46,907 nucleotides of DNA, from the IMG/VR virus record IMGVR_UViG_2651869724_000014; one strand, written 5' to 3'. This DNA comes from a virus (lineage: Duplodnaviria; Heunggongvirae; Uroviricota; Caudoviricetes). Below, piece by piece: positions 10,556 through 39,003 of this stretch. The position numbers and the translations under genes are program-made. Position 1 is the stretch's first letter. Every line of letters starts with the position of its first letter. The notes under the pieces were generated by a model. It saw only the letters and a program-made list of their open reading frames with translations, did no database searches and was not told the origin of the DNA.

Positions 10556-10852
10556 CCAACCTCATCTATTTGATTAACTGTATGCCATCGTGGCGATGGC
10601 TTAACAGCTGCCTGCTTAAAATGTTTTGATAAAAAAACATTGACCTAAAAAGTTCATTTTTCTAAACTTCATTCATTCCCTCACCCCACCCCACCCCACA
10701 GAATGCAGGGCAATACTTCGAGTTACCAGGCAGTGGTCAGGGGTTAAGTAGCCAGCCCGAGGCGTAAGAACATGACGGCAGGGTTCAACTTTAATAACTA
10801 TGCAGCAGGTTTTTGTTCCGCTACCCCGGCGTTAAGGGGAAATGAGGTCAAC

Positions 10853-11008
10853 ATGGATACTATCGATCTTGGCAACAACGAATCTCTGGTGTACGGCGTG
10901 TTTCCCAACCAGGACGGCACATTCACCGCGATGACGTATACCAAAAGCAAAACGTTTAAAACCGAAAATGGTGCCCGTCGCTGGCTGGAAAGAAACTCAG
11001 GTGAGTGA
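10853..11008 (+). CDS. ydfA: YdfA-like small prophage protein
   Basis: 51 aa from ATG 10853 with GAGG RBS; first gene of a ydfA-ydfB-ydfC-dicF-dicB-ydfD arrangement like Qin. Confidence 0.6.
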   Translation: MDTIDLGNNESLVYGVFPNQDGTFTAMTYTKSKTFKTENGARRWLERNSGE

Positions 11009-11009
11009 T

Positions 11010-11138
11010 ATGGATTTCGACACAATCATGGAAAAGACTTACGAAGAATACTTCGAAGGCCTTGCCGAAGGCGAAGAAGCTCTCAGCTTCAGTGAGTTTA
11101 AACAGGCGCTTTCCAGCTCGGCAAAATCTAACGGCTGA
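11010..11138 (+). CDS. ydfB: YdfB-like small prophage protein (42 aa)
   Basis: MDFDTIMEKTYEEYFEGLAEGEEALSFSEFKQALSSSAKSNG; below the 60-aa ORF-track cutoff, translated by hand; position between ydfA and ydfC. Confidence 0.55.
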   Translation: MDFDTIMEKTYEEYFEGLAEGEEALSFSEFKQALSSSAKSNG

Positions 11139-11167
11139 TAAGCGAAGCAGCACCGCGAGGAATCAGT

Positions 11168-11386
11168 ATGCAGAAACGAGAACCCGTCATCATCGCGCCA
11201 GACTATACCGATGATGAACTTTATGAGTGGATGCGCCAGAAAATTAATGCAGCGCAGGATCTGAAATGGGCCAATGAAGCCAGGGCTAAGCAGGCTGAAA
11301 ATCTGTCCGCTCTGGAGCAGGATATCACCAATCTGGAAAAAGCAGCGGCATTAAGCATTGCCAGAATGATTACATACCCGCGTTAA
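11168..11386 (+). CDS. ydfC: YdfC-like prophage protein
   Basis: 72 aa, same length and position as Qin YdfC. Confidence 0.6.
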   Translation: MQKREPVIIAPDYTDDELYEWMRQKINAAQDLKWANEARAKQAENLSALEQDITNLEKAAALSIARMITYPR

Positions 11387-11726
11387 TAGCTAACCAACGA
11401 AGCTAAGGTTGGTAATTAAGGAGTTCTCCACGGGTGAGGTGGAGTGCGTGCGCCGGACACGGGTGAGCATCCGGCACTGACAGTTTACTGAAAGGATATT
11501 TCCATGAAAAGTCAGACCATAACGCGAAAGCGCACGGCGAGGTAGCTGGTTCATAGATAGCCTGTCGTTAAATTTTCGTCGACCGTGCGCTTCCGGTTGT
11601 GGCACTCCGCGAAATGGCGCGGCGGTAAGTATGGCGGGGTTATTCCTTCCCCGTTGAGGACACCGGGTTGTCAGGTTGACCATACGCTTAAGTGACAACT
11701 CCGCTGCAACGCCCTCTGTTATCAAT

Positions 11727-11784
11727 TTTCTGGTGACGTTTGGCGGTATCAGTTTTACTCCGTGACTGCTCTGCCGCCCTTTTT
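11727..11784 (+). ncRNA. dicF: DicF small RNA (ftsZ-targeting sRNA of Qin-type prophages)
   Basis: tttctggtgacgtttggcggtatcagttttactccgtgactgctctgccgcccttttt matches DicF as recalled, with terminal hairpin and T-run, between ydfC and dicB. Confidence 0.7.
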
Positions 11785-11953
11785 AAAGTGAATTTTGTGA
11801 TGCGGTGAATGCGGCTAAGCGCACGCGGAACAGTTAAAACCAAAAACAGTGTTATGGGTGGATTCTCTGTATCCGGCGTTAATTGTTAACTGGTTAACGT
11901 CACCTGGAGGCACCAGGCACCGCATCACAAAACTCATTGTTGAGGGCGCGAAA

Positions 11954-12142
11954 ATGAAAACGTTATTACCAAACGTTAATACGTCTGAAGGTTGTTTTGA
12001 AATTGGTGTCACTATCAGTAATCCTGTATTTACTGAAGATGCCATTAACAAAAGAAAACACGAACGGGAGTTATTAAATAAAGTATGCATTGTTTCAATG
12101 CTGGCCCGTTTACGTCTGATGCCAAAAGGATGTGCACAATGA
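11954..12142 (+). CDS. dicB: Cell-division inhibitor DicB
   Basis: 62-aa translation MKTLLPNVNTSEGCFEIGVTISNPVFTEDAINKRKHERELLNKVCIVSMLARLRLMPKGCAQ. Confidence 0.85.
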   Translation: MKTLLPNVNTSEGCFEIGVTISNPVFTEDAINKRKHERELLNKVCIVSMLARLRLMPKGCAQ

Positions 12143-12330
12143 ATCCAGTATTTGCACTTATTCTGACGGTTTTTCTTGTTTCCGGAGAGCCAGTTGATAT
12201 TGCAGTCAGTGTTCACAGAACAATGCAGGAATGTATGGCAGCAGCAACCGAACAGAAAATTCCAGGCAACTGTTATCCGGTCGATAAAGTTATTCACCAG
12301 GATAATAACGAAATCCCGGCAGGATTTTAA
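12139..12330 (+). CDS. ydfD: YdfD-like lysis-associated small protein
   Basis: 63 aa starting MNPVFALILTVFLVSGEPVD; ATG overlaps the dicB stop (caATGA). Confidence 0.65.
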   Translation: MNPVFALILTVFLVSGEPVDIAVSVHRTMQECMAAATEQKIPGNCYPVDKVIHQDNNEIPAGF

Positions 12331-17298: not shown

Positions 17299-17374
17299 TC
17301 CTCTGTAGTTCAGTCGGTAGAACGGCGGACTGTTAATCCGTATGTCACTGGTTCGAGTCCAGTCAGAGGAGCCA
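17299..17374 (+). tRNA. asnT: tRNA-Asn (anticodon GTT)
   Basis: TCCTCTGTAGTTCAGTCGGTAGAACGGCGGACTGTTAATCCG...GGTTCGAGTCCAGTCAGAGGAGCCA, 76 nt. Confidence 0.85.
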
Positions 17375-17375
17375 A
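17352..17375. repeat. Island attL: direct repeat formed by tRNA-Asn 3' end
   Basis: gttcgagtccagtcagaggagccaa recurs at 45796-45820. Confidence 0.6.
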
Positions 17376-17553
17376 TTTAAAGAAAGCAGACGTTCACTGA
17401 CGTCTGTTTTCTGCATTTATATCAACTGGTTATCCCCTTCTTCAGGTTCACCCTCGTTCGTTAAAAACCGCTCGAATCCACACTACTTTGCTGGTAAAAA
17501 TGCTGGTAAAGCTGGTTCGATTTGCGTTTTACCAGCACGCGGAGGGAACCGTC

Positions 17554-18822
17554 ATGTCACTTACTGATACTAAAGTAAAAAATGCCAGACCAGCGGAAAA
17601 AGCCGTCAAGCTCACTGATGGATTTGGTCTCTACCTTCTTTTGCATCCCAATGGTTCAAAATACTGGCAGTTAGGCTATCGCTTCGATGGTAAACAGAAA
17701 GTGTTTTCCATTGGTGTTTACCCTGCGGTTTCTCTTGCTGATGCCAGACAACGACGTGATGAAGCAAAAAAGCTGCTTGCTCAGGGAATCGATCCTAACG
17801 CTAAAAAACAGGCTGATGAAAAAACTCTGCAGGAAAAGCGGGATAAAACCCGTTCGTTCCGTGTCGTCGCCAGAAGCTGGTTTGCCACCAAAACAAAATG
17901 GTCTGAAGATTACGCCGATACGGTATGGAAGCGCCTTGAGACCTATGTATTCCCGGATATTGGTGACAGCAACGTTTCAGATCTGGATACGGGTGATCTG
18001 CTTGTTCCGGTAAAAAAAGCAGAAACGCTTGGCTATCTTGAAATTGCCATGCGGATCAAGCAATACATCACTGCCATCCTGCGTCACGCCGTCCAGCAAA
18101 AACTTATGCGCCATAATCCTGCTTACGATATGGAAGGTGCTGTGCAGAAACCAGAGACTGAGCACCGTCCCGCACTGGAGCTGGAAGAGATCCCCCTGCT
18201 ACTTGAACGTATTGATGCCTACAAAGGCCGTGGACTTACCACACTGGCGATTAAACTCAATCTGTTGATTTTCATTCGTTCCAGTGAACTCCGCTATGCA
18301 CGATGGTCAGAAATCGACTTCAACAGTAAGTTATGGGTGATACCAGAAAAGCGTGAAGTGATTGAGCGCGTCAAATATTCCACGCGTGGCGCAAAAATGA
18401 AACGCCAGCACTTTGTTCCCCTTTGCAGGCAGGCTCTTAAGATACTGAAAGAGATCCGTCAGCTTACCTATGAAGAAGGTAATGACGCCGGATTAATTTT
18501 TACTGGATGTTATGACTCATTCAAACCCATGAGTGAAAACACCATCAACAAGGCGCTGCGTAAGATGGGCTATGACACCACGCAGGACATCTGCGGTCAT
18601 GGTTTCCGAACACTGGCATGTAGTGCTCTGATTGAATCAGGGCTATGGTCTAAAGATGCGGTAGAACTTCAGATGAGCCACAAGGAAAGCAACAGTGTGC
18701 GTGCTGCCTATACCCATAAGGCCAAACATCTTGAACAGAGAAGATTGATGTTACAGTGGTGGGCAGATTATCTTGATGCAAATCGGGATGGGATGGTCAG
18801 GCCGTTTGAGTTTGCTCAATAA
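17554..18822 (+). CDS. P4-type tyrosine integrase adjacent to tRNA-Asn
   Basis: MSLTDTKVKNARPAEKAVKLTDGFGLYLLLHPNGSKYWQLGYRF is a P4-integrase N-terminus; ATG 17554 with GGAGGG RBS. Confidence 0.85.
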   Translation: MSLTDTKVKNARPAEKAVKLTDGFGLYLLLHPNGSKYWQLGYRFDGKQKVFSIGVYPAVSLADARQRRDEAKKLLAQGIDPNAKKQADEKTLQEKRDKTRSFRVVARSWFATKTKWSEDYADTVWKRLETYVFPDIGDSNVSDLDTGDLLVPVKKAETLGYLEIAMRIKQYITAILRHAVQQKLMRHNPAYDMEGAVQKPETEHRPALELEEIPLLLERIDAYKGRGLTTLAIKLNLLIFIRSSELRYARWSEIDFNSKLWVIPEKREVIERVKYSTRGAKMKRQHFVPLCRQALKILKEIRQLTYEEGNDAGLIFTGCYDSFKPMSENTINKALRKMGYDTTQDICGHGFRTLACSALIESGLWSKDAVELQMSHKESNSVRAAYTHKAKHLEQRRLMLQWWADYLDANRDGMVRPFEFAQ

Positions 18823-18888
18823 AAGTAAACATGGTGGTCAAAGGTTGCTTCAACTTCAATGCGGCTAAAGATATTAGCCGCATTAATA

Positions 18889-19605
18889 CTAAATCGCTAA
18901 CAGTTCTGTTTTCCAGTATTCACTACCACTTTTATCACAGACATGTGAATATAATATCCTATCCATAATCCTAACAATTTCTTTAACATTATTTAGCTTA
19001 TCAATAACAGTATCTTTTGAAAGATTAATTGAAGAATATGAATGGGCTAACTCCGTGCGGCTATCAGAGAAAGACTGGAGCATGAACTCATAATCTTTTT
19101 TACCTTTCGCAGTCATTGCTTTTAATATATCTTTGATACCAAATCTATTAAAAAGAAGTTTGATATTTTTTTTGGAAGGATATTTTTTATCCATTATCAG
19201 CTGTTTTGGGACAATAACAGGCTTTACAGGAGAATTAGGTGACGATAACGCCTGAAGTTTATCCTTACACTTATTTAAGTCACTCATCATTATTGACTCA
19301 GAACCATGAGAAACGTAATTTATAAAATTTTTCTCTTGGTTTTTGAATAAAGAAAACAAGATAATTTCATCAGGTAGATGCGAAAGGCATCCGTTATTTT
19401 GGTTCAGCATGTCAATCCAATCTTCCAAAACATCTTTAATATAATCTTCGAATGCAGCAGAAACTCGAAATATCGCGTTATTATAAACACTATGTATAAT
19501 ATCTGTTCTTAATTCTTTTATTTTTGAAACATAACGAACCTGTTCAAGCAAATTGGAATGAATCTGCTCGAATTGTTTTCTAGATGCGCTTTTAATATAT
19601 GCCAT
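18889..19605 (-). CDS. Hypothetical partner of DUF262 protein (has an Rx4H motif, possible HEPN-like)
   Basis: 238 aa; start overlaps stop of upstream DUF262 gene at 19605; contains SRTELAHSY (R-x4-H); no HNH/DUF1524 motif seen. Confidence 0.35.
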   Translation of the reverse strand: MAYIKSASRKQFEQIHSNLLEQVRYVSKIKELRTDIIHSVYNNAIFRVSAAFEDYIKDVLEDWIDMLNQNNGCLSHLPDEIILFSLFKNQEKNFINYVSHGSESIMMSDLNKCKDKLQALSSPNSPVKPVIVPKQLIMDKKYPSKKNIKLLFNRFGIKDILKAMTAKGKKDYEFMLQSFSDSRTELAHSYSSINLSKDTVIDKLNNVKEIVRIMDRILYSHVCDKSGSEYWKTELLAI

Positions 19606-20720
19606 CAGTTGAAATACCGTTCAATGAAATTTTTCATTGTGCTAATACGATAATGAACCGATTGCGTCGCCGAAGTGCCAGAAGTAATCGACTCATTAAA
19701 ACGCTCCTCTGATGTTATTCTTTGAAACTCTATTAAGAAATCCTTAAGTTTTGTTGCATCAAGTTCGTTTATCATATCCTGATTAAATTTTGATACCATA
19801 AACCCGACAATTAGAGCATCAAATAAAGCAGAATTGAAATTTCTTACTTGAGGCTCTAAGTTTTCATTTAGAATTCTAAATGCTTTTTTACCAAACAATT
19901 TATTAATACAGTTTAATGCACCAAGAAATCTACTACGCCACTCCAAGGCAACATCAGGTTCAATATTTTGTTTTTCAGAACTAAAATCATTAAGGAATTT
20001 CTTTAATGGTTTTTTATATGGTGTCACAGAATATGAAAGTGCGAATGCTCTCAATATGAGTTCATTATTCTTCATTCGTGTGTCATTTTTAATTCCTGTT
20101 AAGTCTCTCCATACTTTCTCCTCACTTATTTCGTCAATCATAGTAAATAATGGACCATGATAAACTCCATGACGTACCTCCTGAGGATTTAATTGTACTG
20201 CACCTGTATTTATTCTTTCAAAAACATCAATTTTAATTTGAGGGTGAGTTTCTTTTAATATGGTTATGCATCTCAATGTGCGATTTAAAATATGCCTACG
20301 GAATCTCGCGTCCAGTGATGAAAACGAATTCCCCTCCAATTCTGGATATGCTGTCAATCCCTGTAATTCAAAACCATCCTCAATAAATAGTTTAATTGAA
20401 GTCAACCGTTGATTACCATCAATAACAGATAAACTCTCATCTTTCTCTTGGTTTAAATAAATAACAGGGATAGGACACTGGATTATTAAAGACTCAATTA
20501 ATCTTGATGCCTGCCCTCTACTCCAAACATATTTCCTTTGAAAATCAGGAATAAACACAGTACCATTTTTCAAATAGTCGACGAGTGTTGATATTGAAAA
20601 ATCGTAAGTCTCGGTATGCAATCGACGCTGCTCAGGGGGAATATCAACGATAGAAATATCATCATCATCAAATATTGGGAAAAGTTTATCCGCAAGTTTT
20701 TTGGCATCATTAACAGACAT
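19605..20720 (-). CDS. DUF262 (ParB/Srx-like) domain protein, GmrS-like
   Basis: IPDFQRKYVWSRGQASRLIESLIIQCPIPVIYL and VIDGNQRLTSI are the DUF262 signature blocks. Confidence 0.6.
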   Translation of the reverse strand: MSVNDAKKLADKLFPIFDDDDISIVDIPPEQRRLHTETYDFSISTLVDYLKNGTVFIPDFQRKYVWSRGQASRLIESLIIQCPIPVIYLNQEKDESLSVIDGNQRLTSIKLFIEDGFELQGLTAYPELEGNSFSSLDARFRRHILNRTLRCITILKETHPQIKIDVFERINTGAVQLNPQEVRHGVYHGPLFTMIDEISEEKVWRDLTGIKNDTRMKNNELILRAFALSYSVTPYKKPLKKFLNDFSSEKQNIEPDVALEWRSRFLGALNCINKLFGKKAFRILNENLEPQVRNFNSALFDALIVGFMVSKFNQDMINELDATKLKDFLIEFQRITSEERFNESITSGTSATQSVHYRISTMKNFIERYFN

Positions 20721-20921
20721 AATAGAACCTCATAAAAATAATTTTAATATATATTACATTAATGATCATTAATAATAAACACCATCAGTAAAAGATAAAA
20801 ATTACCCGCAAACTATAAATGCGCTTATCATTGCATATGTTATATATATCACAATAACAATAAGTATTTCAATACCTTAGATTACCTTCTACATGCGAAA
20901 TTCTGATGTTGATAAAAAGTA

Positions 20922-22199
20922 ATGTTAAAGAATACCAAGGAATGTGCCAACTCTGTATCAAGTGTGACGAATGCCATTGAAAGGGCCAAGGAACTATCAG
21001 GACTCGTCGTATCACGATTAAAATCCGAAGGCATGTATGCGGTTGGTAATGTGGATGGTTTATACCTTCGCATCCGAAATCAGTCCCGTGCATGGGTTCT
21101 TTGCGTGGCTATGGGAACCCGAATCAACAATCTCGGTAGAACAGTTCCAAGACGTTTGAATATGGGGCTTGGCCCTTACCCGGAAGTCTCCTTAGCCGAA
21201 GCGCGTGACAAAGCGCGTGAGCTACGTAAACAAATCCGTAATGGTATTAATCCCCTTCAAGAAAAACACGAACAAAAAGCCCGGCAGGAAATACTGGCCC
21301 GGAAGAAAAAGACCTTTGCCGAATGTTGTGAAGAAGTGCTGGAGGTCAAAGACAGTGAGATGAAGAACAAAAAACATCTCGCGCAATGGCGTTCCACACT
21401 GGAAACCTATGCCTACCCTTTCATTGGCAAAAAGGCCGTTAGTGAAATCACCAAAGTCGATCTTCTGGCAATACTGGAACCTATCTGGTTAACCAAGAAT
21501 GAAACTGCCAGTCGTCTACGTGGACGTATTGAAACAGTGATCGATTACGCCAAGGCCAAAGAATACTTTGAAGGTGATAATCCTGCCGCATGGAAAGGTA
21601 TGCTGAAACCTCTGTTGCCTCAGCCAAGTAAAGTTCAGATCACCAAACACCATGCGGCCCTTCCCTATAACCAGATCGGCTCTTTTATGAAAGAACTACG
21701 TGAACGAAGCGGCGTTTCTCCTCGTGCGCTTGAGTTTGCCATACTGACCGCAGCACGCTCAGGTGAAATTCGTGGTGCCGAGTGGTCAGAGATCGATCTT
21801 GAAGGTAAAACGTGGACCATACCTGCAAGCCGAATGAAAGCAGCGAAGGAGCATCGAGTTCCTCTGTCTGATGCTGCTGTTGCCTTGTTAAAAGCTTTAC
21901 CACGCTTTAAGGGTATCAGTTTTGTATTCCCTGCCACTCGGAAGGGACAACTCTCGGATACGGCTTTACTGGCAGTCCTAAAGCGAATGGGATATACCGA
22001 TTTAACACAGCATGGGTTTAGATCGACATTCCGTGATTGGGCTGGTGAAACGACCAACTATCCGCGTGAGGTAATTGAACATGCGTTAGCTCACCAGTTG
22101 GCAGATAAGGCAGAGGCTGCGTATCAACGTGGGACGTTATGGCCTAAGCGGGTGGCGTTGATGGATGAGTGGTCGGGGTTTTGTCTTGCCAATGTTTAG
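20922..22199 (+). CDS. Second tyrosine integrase (int2) of the nested element
   Basis: GLYLRI...YPEVSLAEARDKAREL arm-binding N-domain and a recombinase C-domain; distinct from int1. Confidence 0.7.
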   Translation: MLKNTKECANSVSSVTNAIERAKELSGLVVSRLKSEGMYAVGNVDGLYLRIRNQSRAWVLCVAMGTRINNLGRTVPRRLNMGLGPYPEVSLAEARDKARELRKQIRNGINPLQEKHEQKARQEILARKKKTFAECCEEVLEVKDSEMKNKKHLAQWRSTLETYAYPFIGKKAVSEITKVDLLAILEPIWLTKNETASRLRGRIETVIDYAKAKEYFEGDNPAAWKGMLKPLLPQPSKVQITKHHAALPYNQIGSFMKELRERSGVSPRALEFAILTAARSGEIRGAEWSEIDLEGKTWTIPASRMKAAKEHRVPLSDAAVALLKALPRFKGISFVFPATRKGQLSDTALLAVLKRMGYTDLTQHGFRSTFRDWAGETTNYPREVIEHALAHQLADKAEAAYQRGTLWPKRVALMDEWSGFCLANV

Positions 22200-22208
22200 C
22201 GGTCTGAT

Positions 22209-22503
22209 TGAAAACATGATCAACAAGGCGCTGCGTAAGATGGGCTATGACACCACGCAGGATATTTGCGGTCATGGTTTCCGCACACTGGCATGTAGTG
22301 CTCTGATTGAATCAGGGCTATGGTCTGAAGATGCGGTGGAACTCCAGATGAACCACAAGGAAAGCAACAGTGTTCGTGCTGCCTATACACATAAGGCCAA
22401 ACATCTTGAGCAGCGAAGGTTGATGCTACAATGGTAGGCAGATTTTCTTGATGCTAACTGGGATGGGATGGTCAGGCCGTTTGAGTTTGCTCAGAAACAA
22501 TAA
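22209..22503 (+). pseudogene. Displaced 3' fragment of an int1-like integrase gene
   Basis: Encodes INKALRKMGYDTTQDICGHGFRTLACSALIESGLW...HLEQRRLMLQW*, paralogous to int1 C-terminus, with a premature stop. Confidence 0.6.
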
Positions 22504-22533
22504 TCGCCTTCCAGCAAGCAGACAATCGCAGTA

Positions 22534-22566
22534 AATAAAAAACGCAGGGAGGTTTTACTCTCCCTG
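22534..22566 (-). terminator. Intrinsic terminator-like hairpin
   Basis: cagggag / ctccctg stem followed on the minus strand by a T-run. Confidence 0.35.
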
Positions 22567-22573
22567 TTACTTA

Positions 22574-22825
22574 TCACTTACGCCCTTTGTTTGATTGTGC
22601 CAAAACAGAGGCTGCAAGTTGCTTCGTTAACTTGCTGGAACGTGGATTATCAAGAGCTGATGATGCCTTATGCTCCATTTGCCCACTTGTCTGGTTTGAT
22701 GTCCCACGTTGCGAAAGCGCAGAACCAGCGAGGCTTTTCTGGATGGCAGAAGCATTAGGATTAGCCAGCGTTTTTGCAGCAGTAGAAGCCACATTTTCAG
22801 AAGTCTGTTTTACGTTTTTACTCAT
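22574..22825 (-). CDS. Hypothetical Ala/Ser-rich small protein
   Basis: ORF only, MSKNVKQTSENVASTAAKTLANP...; low complexity. Confidence 0.25.
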   Translation of the reverse strand: MSKNVKQTSENVASTAAKTLANPNASAIQKSLAGSALSQRGTSNQTSGQMEHKASSALDNPRSSKLTKQLAASVLAQSNKGRK

Positions 22826-23176
22826 GAAACGAATCCCCAAGAAGTTATGAATATCCCTTATGTAGTACTTACATTCCTAAAGAAACACCACATACAGTGG
22901 CATCAACAGATTTTATAATCCTTTGTTTTCCTAAAAACAAGTCTAAAACTGTATAAAAACACAGTTATGATATAGTCTATTGTTTTTAATGAATAAAAAT
23001 AACTAATCGCGTTTAACGAAGAGAAACTAAAAGTTAGCCACTGCTATGAAAAAGAGCTCCTGACAGCAAATAACTTTCAGAAATCTATAGCGATCTTCAT
23101 CTTGAGAGAGGCTTGTACTTAACCCGCAAAAGGTATAGGTATATAATTATTATCAGCTTATACCAAATGGCTATCA

Positions 23177-24097
23177 ATGATAGGAATAAAAATGATTTTA
23201 GTTATAACATCTAGCTTTGATAAAACAATTGATTACATAGTAAAAAAACATAGCATTAACAATTTTTACAGGTTAGATGTTGATAATTTCTCTGAATATA
23301 AATTTTCTTACACTAAAAAAGGATTCAGTATTGTTAATAAAAATAATAATGAATTGCTCGAGAGTGAATGCAGATCCATCTATTATAGAAAACCAACTCC
23401 TGAGAATATTATCAATAAAATTGATTCAAAATATCATAATCATTGCTTTCGAGAAGTATTCGCTTTTGTTGAAGGGATTGCTGAGTCGTTTACTGGAAAA
23501 TGCTTATCCAAGCCATCAATTATAAAAAGAGCAGATAACAAAGTATTGCAAGCAAAAACTGCAATTGATATTGGATTCACAATTCCTGATTTTATATTGA
23601 CAAATAATTTCGATTGTTTCAAAAACACTTTGACAATCAATAGCATTGTCAAACCGTTATCAAGTGGATTGATAGAAAATCAGAAAGAAAAGGAATTTGT
23701 TCAAACAAATATGGTTGACATGAATAAAAACACAGAAACATTAAAATATTGTCCAGCTTATTTTCAATCGTATACAAAAAAAGAATTCGAGGTGAGATCA
23801 ACATTCATAAATGGTAAAGATTATTCGGTAAAAATAATATCTAAAAATAAAATTGACTGGAGAAAAGACAATAACGAAATATTCTATTCAACAATAAAAA
23901 TGCCTGATACTATAAAAGAAAAATGTCTGAGGTATATGTCAGTCATGAATATTTCTTTTGGATGTTTTGATTTTATAGTTTTTGATGGTGAATGGTTCTT
24001 CTTAGAGATGAATGCAAATGGTCAATGGGCATGGCTAGAAAATGAAACGAATATTAATGTGTCAAGTGAGTTAGTGAGGTTTTTAAATGAAGTATAA
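23177..24097 (+). CDS. ATP-grasp family ligase
   Basis: VKPLSSG and C-terminal FGCFDFIVFDGEWFFLEMNANGQWAWLE are ATP-grasp-like blocks. Confidence 0.55.
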   Translation: MIGIKMILVITSSFDKTIDYIVKKHSINNFYRLDVDNFSEYKFSYTKKGFSIVNKNNNELLESECRSIYYRKPTPENIINKIDSKYHNHCFREVFAFVEGIAESFTGKCLSKPSIIKRADNKVLQAKTAIDIGFTIPDFILTNNFDCFKNTLTINSIVKPLSSGLIENQKEKEFVQTNMVDMNKNTETLKYCPAYFQSYTKKEFEVRSTFINGKDYSVKIISKNKIDWRKDNNEIFYSTIKMPDTIKEKCLRYMSVMNISFGCFDFIVFDGEWFFLEMNANGQWAWLENETNINVSSELVRFLNEV

Positions 24098-24941
24098 TTT
24101 CATTTACTTTATTATAAAATTATTAAACTTTTCATTATTATTCCACACATCATTAGATGAGAATTTTGATACTATTGAAAAAAGAAATGTTATTAATTCC
24201 ACGTCATTAAGAGTATCTTTATTATGTTTTCCTGTGGGGAGTAAAATAATATATTTATTAACTTTCAATAAAAAATCAAACCGTATTTTGGATAAATCTA
24301 ACTTCCAGTTTTTTACGAGCATACACTATGATACACTTTGCCCAAGAATATCGGGCACAAAAATTGAAGAATATGTCATGGCGTATAGTCAATATATTAA
24401 ATCAATTCTACCTAAAAGAAGGAAGGAACAAGAAGATTTTTTAAAGCAGCGCCTTTCCGAAAATAACGATAGTTTATCTAATCTTCAAAGTAAGATAACA
24501 CATTATACTACTATCACTATTGCCCTCACAGGGGCAGTGGTTTATCTACAAACCATTCTACCATCCGCAAATACAAATTTTGCAATAAGATTTATTTCCT
24601 ATTATTTATTTTTTATATTGCTTGTTGATATAATTAATTTATTTCTTTTTCTAAGAAAAGGAATGATGGTAAGTAGTTTTTCTCAATCAAGTTTTAAATC
24701 ATTAAAATTTGATAACAGTAATTATGCCTTAACGAAGGCTATATATCGTGACTGGATAGCAAGAAAAGATGACGTCAGATATTTTGCAGGTATAGTTAGA
24801 AATGCCGAAAAATATCTATACAGATCGATTTTAGTTGGAATCACGCTATACATGTTTTCCATTTCACTGCAATATTATAGCGATAATCCAGTGAATGAAA
24901 TCATATTCACGCCGTCAGGCATGTTTTTAGCTGTAAATTAA
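24087..24941 (+). CDS. Polytopic membrane protein, translationally coupled to the ATP-grasp gene
   Basis: 11-bp overlap with the ATP-grasp gene; hydrophobic segments (TITIALTGAVVYLQTILP, FISYYLFFILLVDIINLFLFL, ILVGITLYMFSISLQYY). Confidence 0.45.
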   Translation: MKYNFIYFIIKLLNFSLLFHTSLDENFDTIEKRNVINSTSLRVSLLCFPVGSKIIYLLTFNKKSNRILDKSNFQFFTSIHYDTLCPRISGTKIEEYVMAYSQYIKSILPKRRKEQEDFLKQRLSENNDSLSNLQSKITHYTTITIALTGAVVYLQTILPSANTNFAIRFISYYLFFILLVDIINLFLFLRKGMMVSSFSQSSFKSLKFDNSNYALTKAIYRDWIARKDDVRYFAGIVRNAEKYLYRSILVGITLYMFSISLQYYSDNPVNEIIFTPSGMFLAVN

Positions 24942-24952
24942 AAGGATATAAT

Positions 24953-25297
24953 ATGAAACCGTATACTATGCTCTATAGTGAATCTTTCGAAATAAACGCA
25001 TCAACAATTTCAAGTAAAACAAACTCTACCGTAAAAACATTTACCACAGAACCTAATGATGAAGATTATCTCAACACTTGGACAACGCATACAAGAGTCA
25101 TAGAGAACCAAGATGAGGATTACAGTTTAGCCCCCAGCAACTGTGAAAGAAAATACGAAATATCTAATGAAAAGCAGTCTGCTATGGATACATTTTTTAC
25201 AGAATCTATTGAAAATAATGATGATGATTTTATAGTATGTAGAACATTTGTAACAAATGTCGTTGAATCAGGTGATGATGATTTCTATTTTAACTAA
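24953..25297 (+). CDS. Acidic Thr/Asp/Glu repeat peptide, candidate graspetide precursor
   Basis: 114 aa with repeated blocks TFTTEPNDEDY, ENQDEDY, TFFTESIENNDDDF, TFVTNVVESGDDDFYF; AAGGA-type RBS; terminator follows. Confidence 0.4.
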   Translation: MKPYTMLYSESFEINASTISSKTNSTVKTFTTEPNDEDYLNTWTTHTRVIENQDEDYSLAPSNCERKYEISNEKQSAMDTFFTESIENNDDDFIVCRTFVTNVVESGDDDFYFN

Positions 25298-30412: not shown

Positions 30413-31933
30413 ATGATTAGTGAAATCACAACAAATGGCACTAAAATTAAACTAAGAAATAATAGTGCTAATGATATTAATATTTATGATATGGATTCTT
30501 TATCTTTACTTATTGGTATAAATGGTTCAGGGAAGACAAAATCCTTATGTAGCATAATTAACTATTTCTTTCCTAAAAATAACATGCAATTAACAGGCGA
30601 TTGTACAATATTAAACTCTAGCGGTGAAAGAATAGATCATACTGAAATTAGAAACTGGGGAGTTATATATTTCACCCCATTACCATTTAGACCAAAGTTG
30701 AATATTAGAGATAGTAGGTTTATTAACGCATCTCCAAGCTTGAATGGAAAAAATACTGTATTTGACCTTATCGAATACAAGGATTTAATATCTGACTTTG
30801 ATATTTATCCAAAAGTTGTTGCCATGAAGATGACAAACATTAGCAAAGTTGCAAGATTAATACTTAATATCGCTTTAAATAATAAAGATCTTAATCAGAA
30901 CAGCATACTACTGAATCACGGTCTCCTTGATATTTTGTCATTACGTGCAAAAATTGATGATAATATAGATAATGACGATTCAGACACTATAAAATATAGT
31001 ACCAATAAAAATATTCAAGCAGAAATTGATTCTATTATGCAGCGTTGCTCCGCGCATCTGATTGATGAAATACTTCATCGCGCAGGTGAAGAAAAACTCT
31101 TTTCCATATTTAGCATAATAGATTGGGCAAGTACAAAAAAACAGTTCAGTGATAACGTAGTAATTCCATTATTAAACAAACACTTAAATTTAAACATCCG
31201 TTCAAATAGAAAACTCAGAGAGACTAAATTATATTTAGAATGTGAAAGCAAAATAGATAGTTTACTTAATATTATAAAATATGAGGTAAAAAACCATGAA
31301 ATCATAAAGGATTCAAGACTTAATGAATCAACTTTAAGGTTAGAATTCGAAATAGACCCTTACGAAGGACAAAGGTTATTAACAAGATACAATTTGAATG
31401 ATATTTTTAAAATTGATTTTTCTGATATGAGTTCTGGGCAAATTGCTATTCTAGCTCAAATTGGCGCCATCTCTGACTCTATTACTAAACTGTCAGATAG
31501 AGGTATCAGATCAATACTACTATTAATAGATGAAGGGGACGCTTTTTTACATATCGATTGGCAAAGGAAATATATTTCTAATTTAAATAAAATGCTAGGC
31601 TCATTAAAAACATCTCTGGGCATAGATAATTTACAACTTATTCTAGCCTCGCACTCTCCATTGTTAGCCACAGACGTTCCCAAAGACTTTATAACTAGAC
31701 TACCAATTGAAAATGCTACGTTAAGTGGTTTTGCATCTCCTCTTTATATTTTACTAAATGAATCTTTTGGAACTAAAACCATTGGAGAATTTGCAACAAA
31801 TAAAATTGAAACCATCATCGACAAAATACCTAATAGAATACTGACTGAAAAAGATTATTACCTTATAAATAATATAGACAACCCTCTAATAAAAAGCGAA
31901 ATCGAACGCTTAATTATGCAGCATAAGGATTGA
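30413..31933 (+). CDS. ptuA: Septu PtuA-like ABC/SMC-type ATPase
   Basis: Walker A GINGSGKT, signature-like MSSGQ, Walker B LLLIDEGDAF, followed by H-loop ASHSP; 506 aa. Confidence 0.65.
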   Translation: MISEITTNGTKIKLRNNSANDINIYDMDSLSLLIGINGSGKTKSLCSIINYFFPKNNMQLTGDCTILNSSGERIDHTEIRNWGVIYFTPLPFRPKLNIRDSRFINASPSLNGKNTVFDLIEYKDLISDFDIYPKVVAMKMTNISKVARLILNIALNNKDLNQNSILLNHGLLDILSLRAKIDDNIDNDDSDTIKYSTNKNIQAEIDSIMQRCSAHLIDEILHRAGEEKLFSIFSIIDWASTKKQFSDNVVIPLLNKHLNLNIRSNRKLRETKLYLECESKIDSLLNIIKYEVKNHEIIKDSRLNESTLRLEFEIDPYEGQRLLTRYNLNDIFKIDFSDMSSGQIAILAQIGAISDSITKLSDRGIRSILLLIDEGDAFLHIDWQRKYISNLNKMLGSLKTSLGIDNLQLILASHSPLLATDVPKDFITRLPIENATLSGFASPLYILLNESFGTKTIGEFATNKIETIIDKIPNRILTEKDYYLINNIDNPLIKSEIERLIMQHKD

Positions 31934-31945
31934 AGGTCTTCATAT

Positions 31946-32878
31946 ATGATTATTTCAATTAAAAACAACTGGGAAAAAGCAATAAAATTACATACACATT
32001 ATTTAAATAATTTGATATGCAACTTTTTAAATAAATCCATTCCTAGTTCTGAAGGACGAGACGAAGCTAAAAAATTTATTCTAGATGTGCATCACCTATT
32101 AATACTTGCCGGTAAACAAGATATATTGGAGAGTATTGATATATATAGAGAGTACAAACACAGATTGTCAATAACGCCGGATATATCGAAGCAATTCGAC
32201 AAAGAAATAAGATCTATTTTTAATTACAATAAGTTTGTTAGGAAAACAGGATCATGGAATGCATATACTCTATGTAAAAAATCAATAAGCAGAACATGTC
32301 CGTATTGCAATCAAGCATATGCTTTTTCGATACAAAAAAAGAATCGCGGTTTTCGTCCTACATTAGATCATTTTTATAGTAAGGATGACTTTCCTCACCT
32401 TGCATTGGTAATTAACAATTTAATCCCAAGTTGTAGTTCATGTAACTCAAGCCTTAAAGGCACAATTGATTTCTTCGCAAATGAACATTTAAACCCACTG
32501 TGGGATGATGAAGTTATAAATTTCGTTTTAACTCATGAGGATGGTGTTTTAACATTAATAGACGGAATGATTTCATCACCAGAAAAAATAAAAATAAACA
32601 TATCTTACGATACTACAAATATTTCAATTAAAAACACAGTAAATACTTTTTTGATAAACGAAAGATATCAAGAAATGACAATAGAAGCAATAGAATTTGC
32701 AACTGCCAAATTAAATCTTGAATATGCCGTATCTACTGGAATATCATATTTCAAAAATAACTCAGAAAGTAGTATATTAAGATTTGACAAAAGAGAATAT
32801 AAAAAATATTTGCTCGGTAAATTATATTTAGATATATATAATAAAATGCCAAATGCAAATATAGTTAACACTCGTTAA
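31946..32878 (+). CDS. ptuB: Septu PtuB-like HNH endonuclease
   Basis: HNH-type motifs CPYCNQ, LDHFYSK, NNLIPSCSSCNSSLKG; 13 bp downstream of the ATPase gene. Confidence 0.65.
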   Translation: MIISIKNNWEKAIKLHTHYLNNLICNFLNKSIPSSEGRDEAKKFILDVHHLLILAGKQDILESIDIYREYKHRLSITPDISKQFDKEIRSIFNYNKFVRKTGSWNAYTLCKKSISRTCPYCNQAYAFSIQKKNRGFRPTLDHFYSKDDFPHLALVINNLIPSCSSCNSSLKGTIDFFANEHLNPLWDDEVINFVLTHEDGVLTLIDGMISSPEKIKINISYDTTNISIKNTVNTFLINERYQEMTIEAIEFATAKLNLEYAVSTGISYFKNNSESSILRFDKREYKKYLLGKLYLDIYNKMPNANIVNTR

Positions 32879-34907: not shown

Positions 34908-35930
34908 TTAATTCCCTGTTATTATTTTGCTTAGAATTTCGTCAATATATTCGGTTGTAACTATAAACGCATTTTTACCAATCTCACTTCGAAATATTTG
35001 GCATTCATCACTATGAAATTTACTAATGAAAAAATCAAATGAACACTGTGCTATAGCCTTATTAATACCATCCACGTTTGGTTTATCTTCTGGATTTGGC
35101 GTTGCATAAAGTAGCGAATATGAATCTAATGGAATATATATACATTTTAAATCATCATTACTTTCATAGAATGGCTTAAACTTTCGTTCCCCAGACACTT
35201 CAAAGATTACAATACTATCTCCTAAAATCAAAGATTGATTTGTTTTCAATACTTTGTAATGCATATTCTTATAAATATTACTTTTCTTATCCTCAGATGA
35301 AACCAAAACATCTAACTGAACCTTTTTTACTATTTCAGGTATTTTTGATATTATTTCTTGCTCAAACTTCGGAACTAATGTTGATAGCATCTTTTCTGCA
35401 GCATTTGGTAGCCATAATTGAACGTTATCAAAAAACATGGAGTTATATTGCTCATGTAGACTTGCTGGTATTGGTAGTTTATTTAACTCATTTTGAAGTA
35501 ATTCTTTGATTGTTTTTGGATTTCTTTGGAAATAATCAATAAGAGTTTCCTTGTCTAGCAATCTGTTTTTTAATTGCTCACCAAAATATGCCCATGAATC
35601 TATCATGTTTTCTCTTAAGTTTTTTGTTCTAATCTCCATATGATAAATAAACTCGGCTAAATCTTTCCTGTTGTCTAGGTTGTAAGTCCCATCGACTAAA
35701 CTATTAAGTATGCGTGAATAACTGTATGTTTCGTTTTCTGTTATTTTTTTATCAACGCTTGAATCGCCATAGTGAGAATAAAACTTGTTTTCCAAACCAA
35801 TATTCTCTACTATCATGTTTTCCTTGAAACAATCTTTTCTATACCAGTTAGTAAAATACTTCCCATTTTTTTCGTTAGAAAAACCTCTTTGTAAAAAACG
35901 TGGAATAAAATGTTGCCTATTCCCTGCCAT
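34908..35930 (-). CDS. DUF4238-like protein (candidate single-gene defence)
   Basis: N-terminus MAGNRQHFIPRFLQRGFS resembles the conserved DUF4238 block; GGAG RBS upstream of ATG at 35930; AT-rich. Confidence 0.45.
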   Translation of the reverse strand: MAGNRQHFIPRFLQRGFSNEKNGKYFTNWYRKDCFKENMIVENIGLENKFYSHYGDSSVDKKITENETYSYSRILNSLVDGTYNLDNRKDLAEFIYHMEIRTKNLRENMIDSWAYFGEQLKNRLLDKETLIDYFQRNPKTIKELLQNELNKLPIPASLHEQYNSMFFDNVQLWLPNAAEKMLSTLVPKFEQEIISKIPEIVKKVQLDVLVSSEDKKSNIYKNMHYKVLKTNQSLILGDSIVIFEVSGERKFKPFYESNDDLKCIYIPLDSYSLLYATPNPEDKPNVDGINKAIAQCSFDFFISKFHSDECQIFRSEIGKNAFIVTTEYIDEILSKIITGN

Positions 35931-36174
35931 TATCTTCTCCTCATAGCAAATAAATATGGACAATATATTACCAACATTCTAACTATCATCAATGATTAAA
36001 ACAGAGGAACAAAAGGATTCTCTCTCAGCGAATGGGAACAATGGAACAGCAGCGGTTTCTTCGTAATCGGACTGAAACCGTAGTATTGCATCGGAACAAA
36101 AAATTAACTTACCTTCCATCGCTCATCCTCCTCCTGTAGTTATCAGACTAAATATTTTACCAGAACATAGGTTG

Positions 36175-36989: not shown

Positions 36990-37930
36990 CTCATGCTTTT
37001 ACTTATTATTTTTAAACTACTTTTTGAAAAAATCTTTATCTCTGTGCTGACGCACGGCTACGCCCTGACACTGATATTTTTATTTTATTCATCTCCTGTC
37101 TTTTAAATAAAAAGAAAAGTACTCGATCATTGTTTGATCTCTTTTCCTCATGATGCTGAATTTAGATCCTATGTTTAAACATAGTTTTTCCCTTTAGACA
37201 TATAGCATTTGCTCTTAAACGTATAGGAAAACTATATCTTTGATAGCAGCACTTCGTGATTGTTGCGAACAATCACTCTGCTGAACAGGGCTTGTTCCTG
37301 TTAATGATGGATTTTTCAATTAATGATTTTTTCCATATAAATTACTGCCTGTAATCAATTACAAGCGTTTTAAGTATGAAGATAGTTATATGTGTCACCT
37401 TCATGCTTCCAACGTCTTAGCAAGCTTCCTGTGCGGTTTATTAACAGCTTATAGAAAACTATTACTTATATTTATTCTTACCTGATACATTCAATTATTT
37501 TTTTGAAAATACATACATTGTGCTGGCGCACGGCTACGCCCCTGATACTGGTATAAAAATATTTTCCTTGTTCATCTATAATGCATTAATGTTTTATCAG
37601 TGAAAAATAAATAGATCAGTATAAAGATTATTCCCTCCACCGAGTTAGAACTCAGATCTTATGCTTGAATATAACATCTTCCCTCTGACATATAGCATTT
37701 GCTCTTAAACACATAGGAAAACTATATCCTTAGTAGCAGCACTTCGTGATTGTTGCCAACAATCACTTTGCTGGACAGGGCTTGCCCCTGTTAATGATGG
37801 ATTTATCCAAAAAAAGATCGCGTCGAAGACGCATATAAATTAAAAGGAATATTAATTAAGCTCTCACACTTAAAGCAGCGGTTCGTGATTGTTCGAAACA
37901 ATCACTTCGCTGATAGCAGTTATTAAGGAA
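36990..37930. repeat. Tandem duplication of an about 480-bp noncoding unit with conserved imperfect hairpin
   Basis: 37022-37075 parallels 37502-37550; 37190-37320 parallels 37680-37810 (about 90 percent); hairpin core gtgattgttgcgaacaatcac recurs at about 37250, 37740 and 37880. Confidence 0.55.
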
Positions 37931-38060
37931 TACAATGCCCCCTGTAAAACCACTAAAACATAACGCAAAAGTAAAGCTGGACTCTCTTAACTTCTTACTA
38001 ATTATTTAATTATAAGCATAGTCCCGGACCAGTAAAATCGCGGCTTCACAACTTTTTTTC

Positions 38061-38144
38061 CTATGTTCGAACATAGCAAACTCCTATGTTCAAACATAGA
38101 TCCGTCCTATGTTCGAACATAGCAAGATCTATGTTCGAACATAG
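38061..38144. repeat. Four tandem 16-bp palindromes CTATGTTCGAACATAG at 22-23 bp periodicity (iteron/operator array)
   Basis: Copies at 38061-38076, 38084-38099 (one mismatch), 38107-38122, 38129-38144; a related copy at 37169-37184. Confidence 0.6.
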
Positions 38145-38268
38145 TTTTTTTAACATATAACATTGTCATAAGAATATACTTTCTATTTTATTTATAGTTC
38201 TACTATTGACTTTCACTTTTTTGCATAGTATTAAAATAGATATAACAAAAATAATAAGAGGGAATAAT

Positions 38269-39003
38269 ATGAATACACCAGATGCTGATCTATTACACTT
38301 ATTTGAATCATTAACTACCGAGCAAAAGATTGATATCGCAAGACGCTTACTACAAAACAAAGAAATAAAATCAACGACAGTTATTTCTTCTGAGGAAGAT
38401 AAAGCTATTTCGTTTTCACAACCTTATGTATTTGCTTTTACTTCCAACTTTCGTGTGTTCTCTGATCTTGACATATCCAAGAATGAATTCCGTGTATTAA
38501 CCTATATTTTGGAGTATATGGAGTTTGGAAATCTGATCAATCTTTCACAATCATCGCTGTGTAAAGCACTGAATATCGCCTCCGGTAATATGTCTAACAT
38601 TTTTAAAAAACTCAGACAGAAAGGAATACTTGTAGAGCATCATGGTCATCTCTATATCAACTCTAACATTTTCGCAAAAGGGATGAGTCATCAACTGGAT
38701 CAGAAACGTAAAGAACAGTTGAGCAACGCTCGCAATCTTTGCGCAGAAATAGAACAGTATCCAGAAAGTTATTCAGCTATGTCAAAAAGTGAAAGAAGAA
38801 CCCTATCCTTAGAAACTGAGACCAAAGAAATCTATACTGACGCATTTGTTTTCAGTAAGAAGAAAAAGAATAACGCTGTTCCTAATCCCAATAACAGCAT
38901 ACATATTGATAAACCACGAAAAGTATATAAAAGAACAAAGGAAAACGAGGAAGCAAGGAGGAACTCTGTTGACGCAGACTCTCATATGCAGAAAGTATCC
39001 TGA
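38269..39003 (+). CDS. Winged-helix DNA-binding protein, possible Rep-like initiator or repressor acting on the upstream palindrome array
   Basis: FRVLTYILEYMEFGNLINLSQSSLCKALNIASGNMSNIFKKLRQKGIL is wHTH-like; ATG 38269 with AGAGGG RBS. Confidence 0.35.
   Translation: MNTPDADLLHLFESLTTEQKIDIARRLLQNKEIKSTTVISSEEDKAISFSQPYVFAFTSNFRVFSDLDISKNEFRVLTYILEYMEFGNLINLSQSSLCKALNIASGNMSNIFKKLRQKGILVEHHGHLYINSNIFAKGMSHQLDQKRKEQLSNARNLCAEIEQYPESYSAMSKSERRTLSLETETKEIYTDAFVFSKKKKNNAVPNPNNSIHIDKPRKVYKRTKENEEARRNSVDADSHMQKVS

Follow-up and report, generated by a model that had tools for sequence, protein, structure and literature searches.

A DUF262-HEPN gene pair beside the integrases of an Escherichia coli asn-tRNA island: probably an anti-phage module of the PD-T4-2 type

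The stretch of DNA considered here (called the window) is the whole of IMG/VR record IMGVR_UViG_2651869724_000014, 46,907 nucleotides (nt) in length. It is Escherichia coli DNA, passing through genes for tRNA-Ser, mtfA, and tRNA-Asn (17299-17374) and then into an island of 28.4 kb. Within the island lie two adjacent genes on the minus strand, which are the subject of this report. The upstream gene (19605..20720) encodes a protein of 371 amino acids (aa), with an N-terminal ParB/Srx-like DUF262 domain of the nucleoside triphosphatase (NTPase) type and a helical, ParBDB-like C-terminal domain; none of the domains assigned to it is a nuclease. The downstream gene (18889..19605) encodes a 238-aa protein of the RiboL-PSP family of HEPN proteins, a predicted ribonuclease (RNase) effector with the motif R183-x4-H188. 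An initial annotation, made from the sequence alone, had described the two genes as overlapping, and so they do: at TGATG (19603..19607, minus strand, as read from the sequence), the TGA stop of the DUF262 gene and the ATG of the HEPN gene have one base in common. The arrangement suggests that translation of the two genes is coupled. The GC content of the pair is 32.6%, compared with 47-48% in both flanking integrase genes, consistent with horizontal acquisition.

The DUF262 gene was recognized at the outset by the blocks FQRKYVW and DGNQR. These are found at aa 60-66 and 101-105, respectively, and the protein passes the gathering threshold of the Pfam family GmrSD_N/DUF262 (96.1 bits, where 33.2 are required; E = 3.9e-27). 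Three motifs are invariant when 50 homologues with identities down to 50% are aligned: QRxxxW (61-66), DGxQR (101-105, here DGNQR), and FxxxN (167-171). These are the three DUF262 motifs defined by Li et al. (PMC12065111). The best match to the protein in PADLOC is NsnA (5.6e-83, 277 bits, profile positions 38-382 of 385), and it also matches PD-T4-2_A (9.2e-44, 148 bits, profile positions 48-359 of 363), the model for the DUF262 protein of the anti-phage system PD-T4-2. In structure, the protein comes closest to BrxU and SspE, both type IV enzymes, and a sequence search of the PDB gave a weak match to BrxU and nothing else. No NCBIfam model matches either protein of the pair. RefSeq calls them 'DUF262 domain-containing' and 'HEPN domain-containing'.

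The partner belongs among the RiboL-PSP HEPN proteins and is not a DUF1524 nuclease. It passes the Pfam threshold for HEPN_RiboL-PSP (PF18735) with 46.2 bits, where 28.4 are required, over profile positions 4-189 of 191, and it also matches the related family HEPN_MAE_28990 weakly. A match to DUF1524, HNH, or His-Me domains was sought in both proteins and found in neither at E<=1. The AlphaFold model of the partner, with a predicted local distance difference test (pLDDT) score of 94, is entirely alpha-helical, in keeping with the all-alpha HEPN fold, and its best structural matches are HEPN domains, the closest being the HEPN toxins of toxin-antitoxin (TA) systems 5yep, 8xdj, and 7ae2. Listed as HEPN comparators are HI0074, TT1696, and AF0298, along with the HEPN domain of sacsin, AbiA, HepS, Csx1, LsoA, and Csm6. 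A sequence search of the PDB with the HEPN profile returned nothing.

The initial annotation had also drawn attention to SRTELAHSY as an R-x4-H motif that might signify a HEPN-like RNase, in a protein without DUF1524 or HNH motifs, and on both counts it is borne out. The string occupies aa 182-190 and so gives R183-TELA-H188. By itself, the pattern R-x4-6-H is weak evidence, since it occurs four times in the 238-aa protein. Among these candidates, R183 and H188 alone show 100% conservation in an alignment of 125 sequences of the HEPN family, accompanied by N147 and D215 (100%) and E53 (99%). R183/H188 is an invariant motif of the catalytic type, and RNase activity is predicted from it.

How far this form of HEPN extends may be judged from a HMMER scan of 1.84 billion representative proteins, which yielded 186 clusters (at 50% identity) with E<=1e-3. 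Among the 150 best clusters listed, most are 225-245 aa in length and are matched from end to end. Shorter HEPN-like matches (130-185 aa) were considered as possible equivalents of PD-T4-2B, the HEPN protein of PD-T4-2, and were rejected: five of the seven that were looked up share a cluster with a member of about 235 aa and are therefore truncated fragments, and the other two are singletons on contigs shorter than 1 kb. In PADLOC, neither the 238-aa protein nor any of four further members of the ~235-aa clade finds a match (for the former, at E<=1).

The two genes are found together throughout the related loci that were compared. A HEPN gene of the same family lies directly 3' of the DUF262 gene in 82 of 82 informative loci, drawn from several phyla. 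In all nine of the loci from genomes or assemblies, the interval between the end of DUF262 and the start of the HEPN-family gene is -14 to +3 nt. The DUF262 proteins of these nine loci are 44-91% identical to that of the window, and the hosts are Phytobacter, Alteromonas, Sodalis, Mesorhizobium, and Hymenobacter as well as metagenome-assembled genomes of Bacteroidota and of delta- and beta-proteobacteria; in Sodalis, the homologous pair adjoins the integrase of a P2-like prophage. Metagenomic sequences, queried with the DUF262 alignment, supplied 80 loci (47-100% identity), and in every one of the 73 with sufficient room (at least 300 nt downstream), a HEPN-family gene comes directly after the DUF262 gene. 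Even with more distant DUF262 genes, found on viral contigs, the next gene encodes a HEPN protein of the RiboL-PSP or MAE_28990 family in ten of the ten cases tested. In every distant pair, it is the HEPN protein that evolves faster and the DUF262 protein that changes less (36% identity as against 64% in one case, 43% as against 72% in another). Both genes are nonetheless under strong purifying selection, the ratio of nonsynonymous to synonymous substitution rates (dN/dS) relative to the Phytobacter copy being 0.075 and 0.063 for the two. Within E. coli, the pair is carried by 28 of 5426 complete genomes, at 99.7-99.9% identity, and strain E2348/69 is one that has it. From the Pfam thresholds, the conservation, the synteny, and the dN/dS ratios, both genes are real and not chance open reading frames (ORFs).

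A pair with this architecture has already been examined in the laboratory. PD-T4-2, from E. coli ECOR65, was annotated 'DUF262, HEPN' by Vassallo et al. (2022, PMC9519451), with HHpred placing PD-T4-2B in PF18735. The cloned system protects against phage T4, and its deletion sensitizes ECOR65 (PMC9519451). The same authors built a plasmid bearing PD-T4-2B H127A and reported that, in four systems, protection was lost once key conserved residues had been mutated (PMC9519451). A reference PD-T4-2 locus was found for the present comparison by means of their lambda-red primer sequence, in strain 2009C-3133, where it sits at ssrA within a P4-like satellite, between psu and int. The A protein from this locus reaches 538 bits on the PADLOC model PD-T4-2_A and the B protein 213 bits on PD-T4-2_B, and the B protein also passes PF18735 at 31.4 bits.

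The window pair resembles PD-T4-2 in that a DUF262 gene (encoding about 365-371 aa, ParB-DUF262 plus a helical C-terminus) is followed by an adjacent, co-oriented gene for a PF18735 HEPN protein with R-x4-H. The DUF262 proteins are related in sequence (29% identity over 330 aa, BLASTP E = 1e-33), and both pairs are carried beside an integrase on an E. coli mobile element. However, PD-T4-2B has 167 aa and the window HEPN protein 238; the window DUF262 protein scores higher on NsnA (277 bits) than on PD-T4-2_A (148 bits); and the carriers differ, a P4-like satellite at ssrA in the one case and a mobilizable island at asn-tRNA in the other.

The novelty that the initial annotation implied has to be given up. 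Operons combining ParB with Ribo L-PSP-HEPN and ParB with MAE_28990-HEPN were described in 2013 (Anantharaman et al., Biol Direct 8:15, PMC3710099), PD-T4-2 is present in PADLOC, and both domains already figure in the RefSeq names. The operons of 2013 show the same association of DUF262/ParB and HEPN as does the window pair, although they were a computational prediction at the level of families, and the ~235-aa HEPN clade was not singled out among them. The combination of DUF262 and HEPN is an already known and recurrent class, borne by mobile elements, and the window pair, judged by its sequence, is best filed as a divergent member of the PD-T4-2 type within it. A third variant, DUF262 with a MAE_28990 HEPN protein, with or without a cytosine methyltransferase, is found at an E. 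coli P2 prophage hotspot and is common on viral contigs. Both E. coli GN04592 (3788-6664 of the locus examined, L008) and Peduovirus P2_4B2 carry the three-gene form, with genes encoding DUF262, a MAE_28990-family HEPN protein, and a DNA cytosine methyltransferase, at the P2-like hotspot between the portal and replication-endonuclease genes.

What might such a pair do for its carrier? The reading we prefer is that the two genes probably form an anti-phage module like PD-T4-2, lodged in the integrase-proximal variable region of a mobilizable asn-tRNA island. The initial annotation had called the pair a candidate for defence, and that candidacy is strengthened by the architecture it shares with the validated PD-T4-2 (PMC9519451) and by its location on a mobile element. 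By analogy with GmrSD, BrxU, and SspE, the DUF262/ParBDB-like protein would be both sensor and switch: some feature of the invading DNA, as the presumptive trigger, would be recognized, and the protein would change its state by binding or hydrolyzing a nucleoside triphosphate. The switch, which drives a fused His-Me DNase in those enzymes, would here be coupled, through the translationally linked partner, to a RiboL-PSP HEPN protein. The R183/H188 site of the HEPN protein, as the putative effector, would then cleave RNA, leading to an arrest of translation that blocks multiplication of the phage, and perhaps the infected cell is sacrificed in the process.

Several considerations weigh against this account. 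The literature searched provided no mechanistic study of PD-T4-2 itself, and the scheme leading from sensor to RNase is an analogy. Nuclease activity resides in some ParB-like and DUF262 proteins themselves, and here too the DUF262 protein could be the effector rather than the sensor. The transfer of function from PD-T4-2 to the window pair would depend on a common Pfam family and a common architecture: the HEPN proteins of the two have no pairwise similarity (BLASTP E = 0.67), hhalign aligns only 50 columns around R-x4-H (probability 2%), and the window HEPN protein matches none of the three PADLOC models for PD-T4-2_B. Also, no check on the toxicity of the HEPN protein was found, the region 18700-21000 having neither a third gene nor tandem repeats and matching nothing in Rfam.

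One might suppose instead that the pair is an addiction module stabilizing the island, in which HEPN is a constitutive RNase toxin, the DUF262 protein is an antitoxin that sequesters it, and any phage defence is absent or incidental. The tight overlap of the genes, their invariable linkage, and their position beside integrases on mobile elements all speak for a TA system, as does the HEPN model, which is nearest in structure to TA toxins (5yep, 8xdj, 7ae2). This possibility need not exclude defence, since abortive-infection systems often act like TA pairs. However, the antitoxins known to counter HEPN toxins are either MNT nucleotidyltransferases or RNAs, and the pair comes with neither. An RNA antitoxin, as in type III TA systems, was rejected for this pair, tandem repeats and Rfam matches being absent from 18700 to 21000. 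As for the HEPN-MNT systems of type VII, of which SO_3166/SO_3165 (PDB 5yep) is an example, their HEPN protein belongs to another Pfam family and is about 100 residues shorter than that of the window, whose partner is DUF262 rather than an MNT nucleotidyltransferase. Furthermore, a protein of 371 aa with three invariant nucleotide-binding motifs exceeds the needs of a passive inhibitor, and PD-T4-2, homologous at the level of architecture, protects against phage (PMC9519451). An addiction module therefore seems unlikely.

Somewhat less credible still is the converse of the preferred scheme, in which the DUF262 protein is the effector, a ParB-like nuclease or type IV-like enzyme aimed at modified phage DNA, with HEPN reduced to a regulatory or nucleotide-binding subunit. 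ParB-fold proteins do include nucleases, ParB being among the endoDNase domains found fused to HEPN (PMC3710099); PD-T4-2 was selected on T4, a phage with modified DNA; and the DUF262 domain is most similar to those of the type IV enzymes BrxU and SspE. Yet complete invariance of R183 and H188 is the pattern of a catalytically active HEPN protein, and it was the HEPN residue H127 of PD-T4-2B that Vassallo et al. chose to change to alanine, their point mutants having lost protection. Nor does the comparison with type IV enzymes lead to DUF262 as the nuclease, for DNA cleavage in GmrSD, BrxU, and SspE is assigned to DUF1524 (PMC10952713). Those enzymes share with the window protein an N-terminal DUF262 domain with the nucleotide-binding motif DGxQR, followed by a helical DNA-binding middle domain (PMC10952713; PMC12065111), but BrxU and SspE are 560-590 aa in length, compared with 371 aa here, and no DUF1524 His-Me DNase is either fused or adjacent to the window protein. 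With a separate HEPN protein as effector instead of DUF1524, it is RNA, and not DNA, that would be the target.

An ordinary GmrSD type IV restriction system, split into two genes and with a diverged DUF1524 nuclease as the second, has next to no likelihood, despite the match of the first gene to Pfam GmrSD_N. The partner's passage of the HEPN_RiboL-PSP threshold, with no DUF1524 or HNH match at E<=1, and its confident all-helical model, with HEPN structural matches, exclude a diverged DUF1524 domain, and this possibility was rejected. Almost as improbable is a Menshen (NsnABC) system that has degenerated through loss of NsnB and NsnC. Menshen was reportedly described by Millman et al. in 2022 and by Li et al. 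in 2025. The window DUF262 protein does have the architecture of NsnA (ParB-DUF262 plus ParBDB; PMC12065111) and matches it over its full length, as its top PADLOC hit, but the NsnA model is a broad one, since the genuine PD-T4-2A of the reference locus scores 197 bits on it. Beside the window pair there is no gene for the ABC ATPase NsnB or for the inPIN-effector NsnC; HEPN comes directly after DUF262, and integrase genes flank the two. Menshen was rejected on these grounds, and because the same two-gene order holds in all 82 related loci, the pair is not a remnant of it.

The pair extends a known class by one divergent member and introduces no new principle. Its main value lies elsewhere. 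The mechanism of DUF262-HEPN systems appears from the literature searched to be unsolved, and the present clade is widespread, both of its structural models are confident, and it is represented in the well-studied strain E2348/69, making it a convenient second model with which to ask how licensing by a ParB-like NTPase can be directed to an RNase and not to a DNase. Also, censuses of defence systems may under-count the variant, because its HEPN clade is not covered by any model in PADLOC 2.0.0.

The place of the pair on the island can be seen by comparison with an otherwise collinear island from strain KBN10P04869, whose site is empty and whose order of genes is mtfA, tRNA-Asn, int, hypothetical, MvdC. 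Relative to this island, the window has an insertion of 3,675 bp, whose only genes are those of the HEPN-DUF262 pair and int2 (20922..22199, plus strand), which encodes a second tyrosine integrase of 425 aa (Pfam Arm-DNA-bind_3, Phage_int_M, and Phage_integrase). The insertion is bordered by a duplication of the 3' end of the first integrase gene, int1: the left copy lies at 18530..18828 (plus strand; 299 bp, 91% identical to 22205-22503), and the right copy at 22205..22503 (plus strand) is a displaced fragment corresponding to aa 345-444. The initial annotation had made the pair the sole cargo of a nested element. This description is borne out in part: the contents of the insertion agree with it, and the insertion may be either an autonomous element or a mosaic produced by recombination.

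Genes about 96% identical in DNA to int2 encode integrases in 421 complete E. coli genomes, including those of CFT073 and Nissle 1917, and the similarity begins only about 50-60 nt inside the ORF, the 5' end and upstream region being different here. On a Phytobacter contig, the pair is flanked by int1 and a fragment of int1, and int2 is missing. In the sister island of E. coli BS90R-A, a gene for a 567-aa 'dsDNA nuclease domain-containing protein' (10558-12261 of the locus examined, L017) comes after int2 and replaces the MvdC genes, which suggests that the integrase-proximal region is a hotspot for variable cargo. Among complete E. coli genomes, the int-MvdC junction is found in 92 and the pair in 28, which is in keeping with a nested element. 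No attachment (att) site was found between the pair and int2, the 3' end of tRNA-Asn being found only at 17358-17374 and 45803-45819. The 421 genomes, the Phytobacter contig, and the BS90R-A island point to a recombination mosaic, and an autonomous mini-element is no more likely than a variable hotspot near the integrase.

A bolder proposal can be framed, that the ~235-aa HEPN clade with its NsnA-like DUF262 protein constitutes a defence system functionally distinct from PD-T4-2 and, separately, that the 3,675-bp unit is a minimal integrative element. It is unlikely as a whole. Were the first part true, the system could have a trigger or an RNA target other than that of PD-T4-2; were the second part true, integrase genes in other asn-tRNA islands would be its insertion sites, and a defence cassette its sole cargo.

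In E2348/69 (NC_011601), RefSeq shows int2 as two pseudogene fragments (22073-23654 of the locus examined, L001), whereas tblastn on this strain gives an uninterrupted match of 425 aa, 100% identical to the int2 protein of the window. The pseudogene call may be an artefact of annotation.

The sequences on either side of the pair offer possible sites of regulation. An AT-rich region of 201 nt (20721..20921, minus strand) separates the DUF262 gene from the divergent int2, with GAGG 8 nt ahead of the ATG, and is presumed to be the promoter region of the pair. A scan for promoters and terminators gave match counts no higher than the shuffled expectation, in this region as elsewhere. Between the convergent int1 and HEPN genes is a hairpin (18861..18881, with no strand assigned), GCGGCTAA-tatct-TTAGCCGC, with an 8-bp stem and a 5-nt loop. 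It may possibly serve as a bidirectional terminator, a suggestion offered with little confidence. The scan left the hairpin uncalled because it has no run of T.

The island as a whole lies between two directly repeated copies of the tRNA-Asn 3' end (17351-17378 and 45796-45823) and, by similarity to the annotation of E2348/69, contains genes for a MobQ relaxase, a PilV shufflon pilus, TraD, and RepL. It also carries what is likely a second defence pair (30413-32878, plus strand), in which the gene for an AAA_15/AAA_21 ATPase of 506 aa precedes that for an HNH-like protein of 310 aa, the two matching the PADLOC candidate system PDC-M62 (A, 5e-23; B, 1.5e-41) and, more weakly, PtuA/PtuB of Septu. 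Three other proteins of the island, DUF4238 (34908-35963, minus strand), PIN_12 (41934-42644, plus strand), and DUF6387 (44565-45440, minus strand), have no match in PADLOC. Directly after the insertion (23177-25297, plus strand), a gene for an ATP-grasp protein of the MvdC/MvdD type (pre-ATP-grasp match, 1.5e-08) is accompanied by two hypothetical genes, and the three may form a small cluster resembling those for ribosomally synthesized and post-translationally modified peptides. Finally, the segments 37158-37913 and 38059-38147 contain a 160-nt repeat (84%), units of 40 nt that include inverted repeats, and five iteron-like direct repeats of 21-23 nt (TCCTATGTTCGAACATAG...). These repeats sit just upstream of an ORF (38206-39003) that is the counterpart of the gene annotated as RepL in E2348/69.

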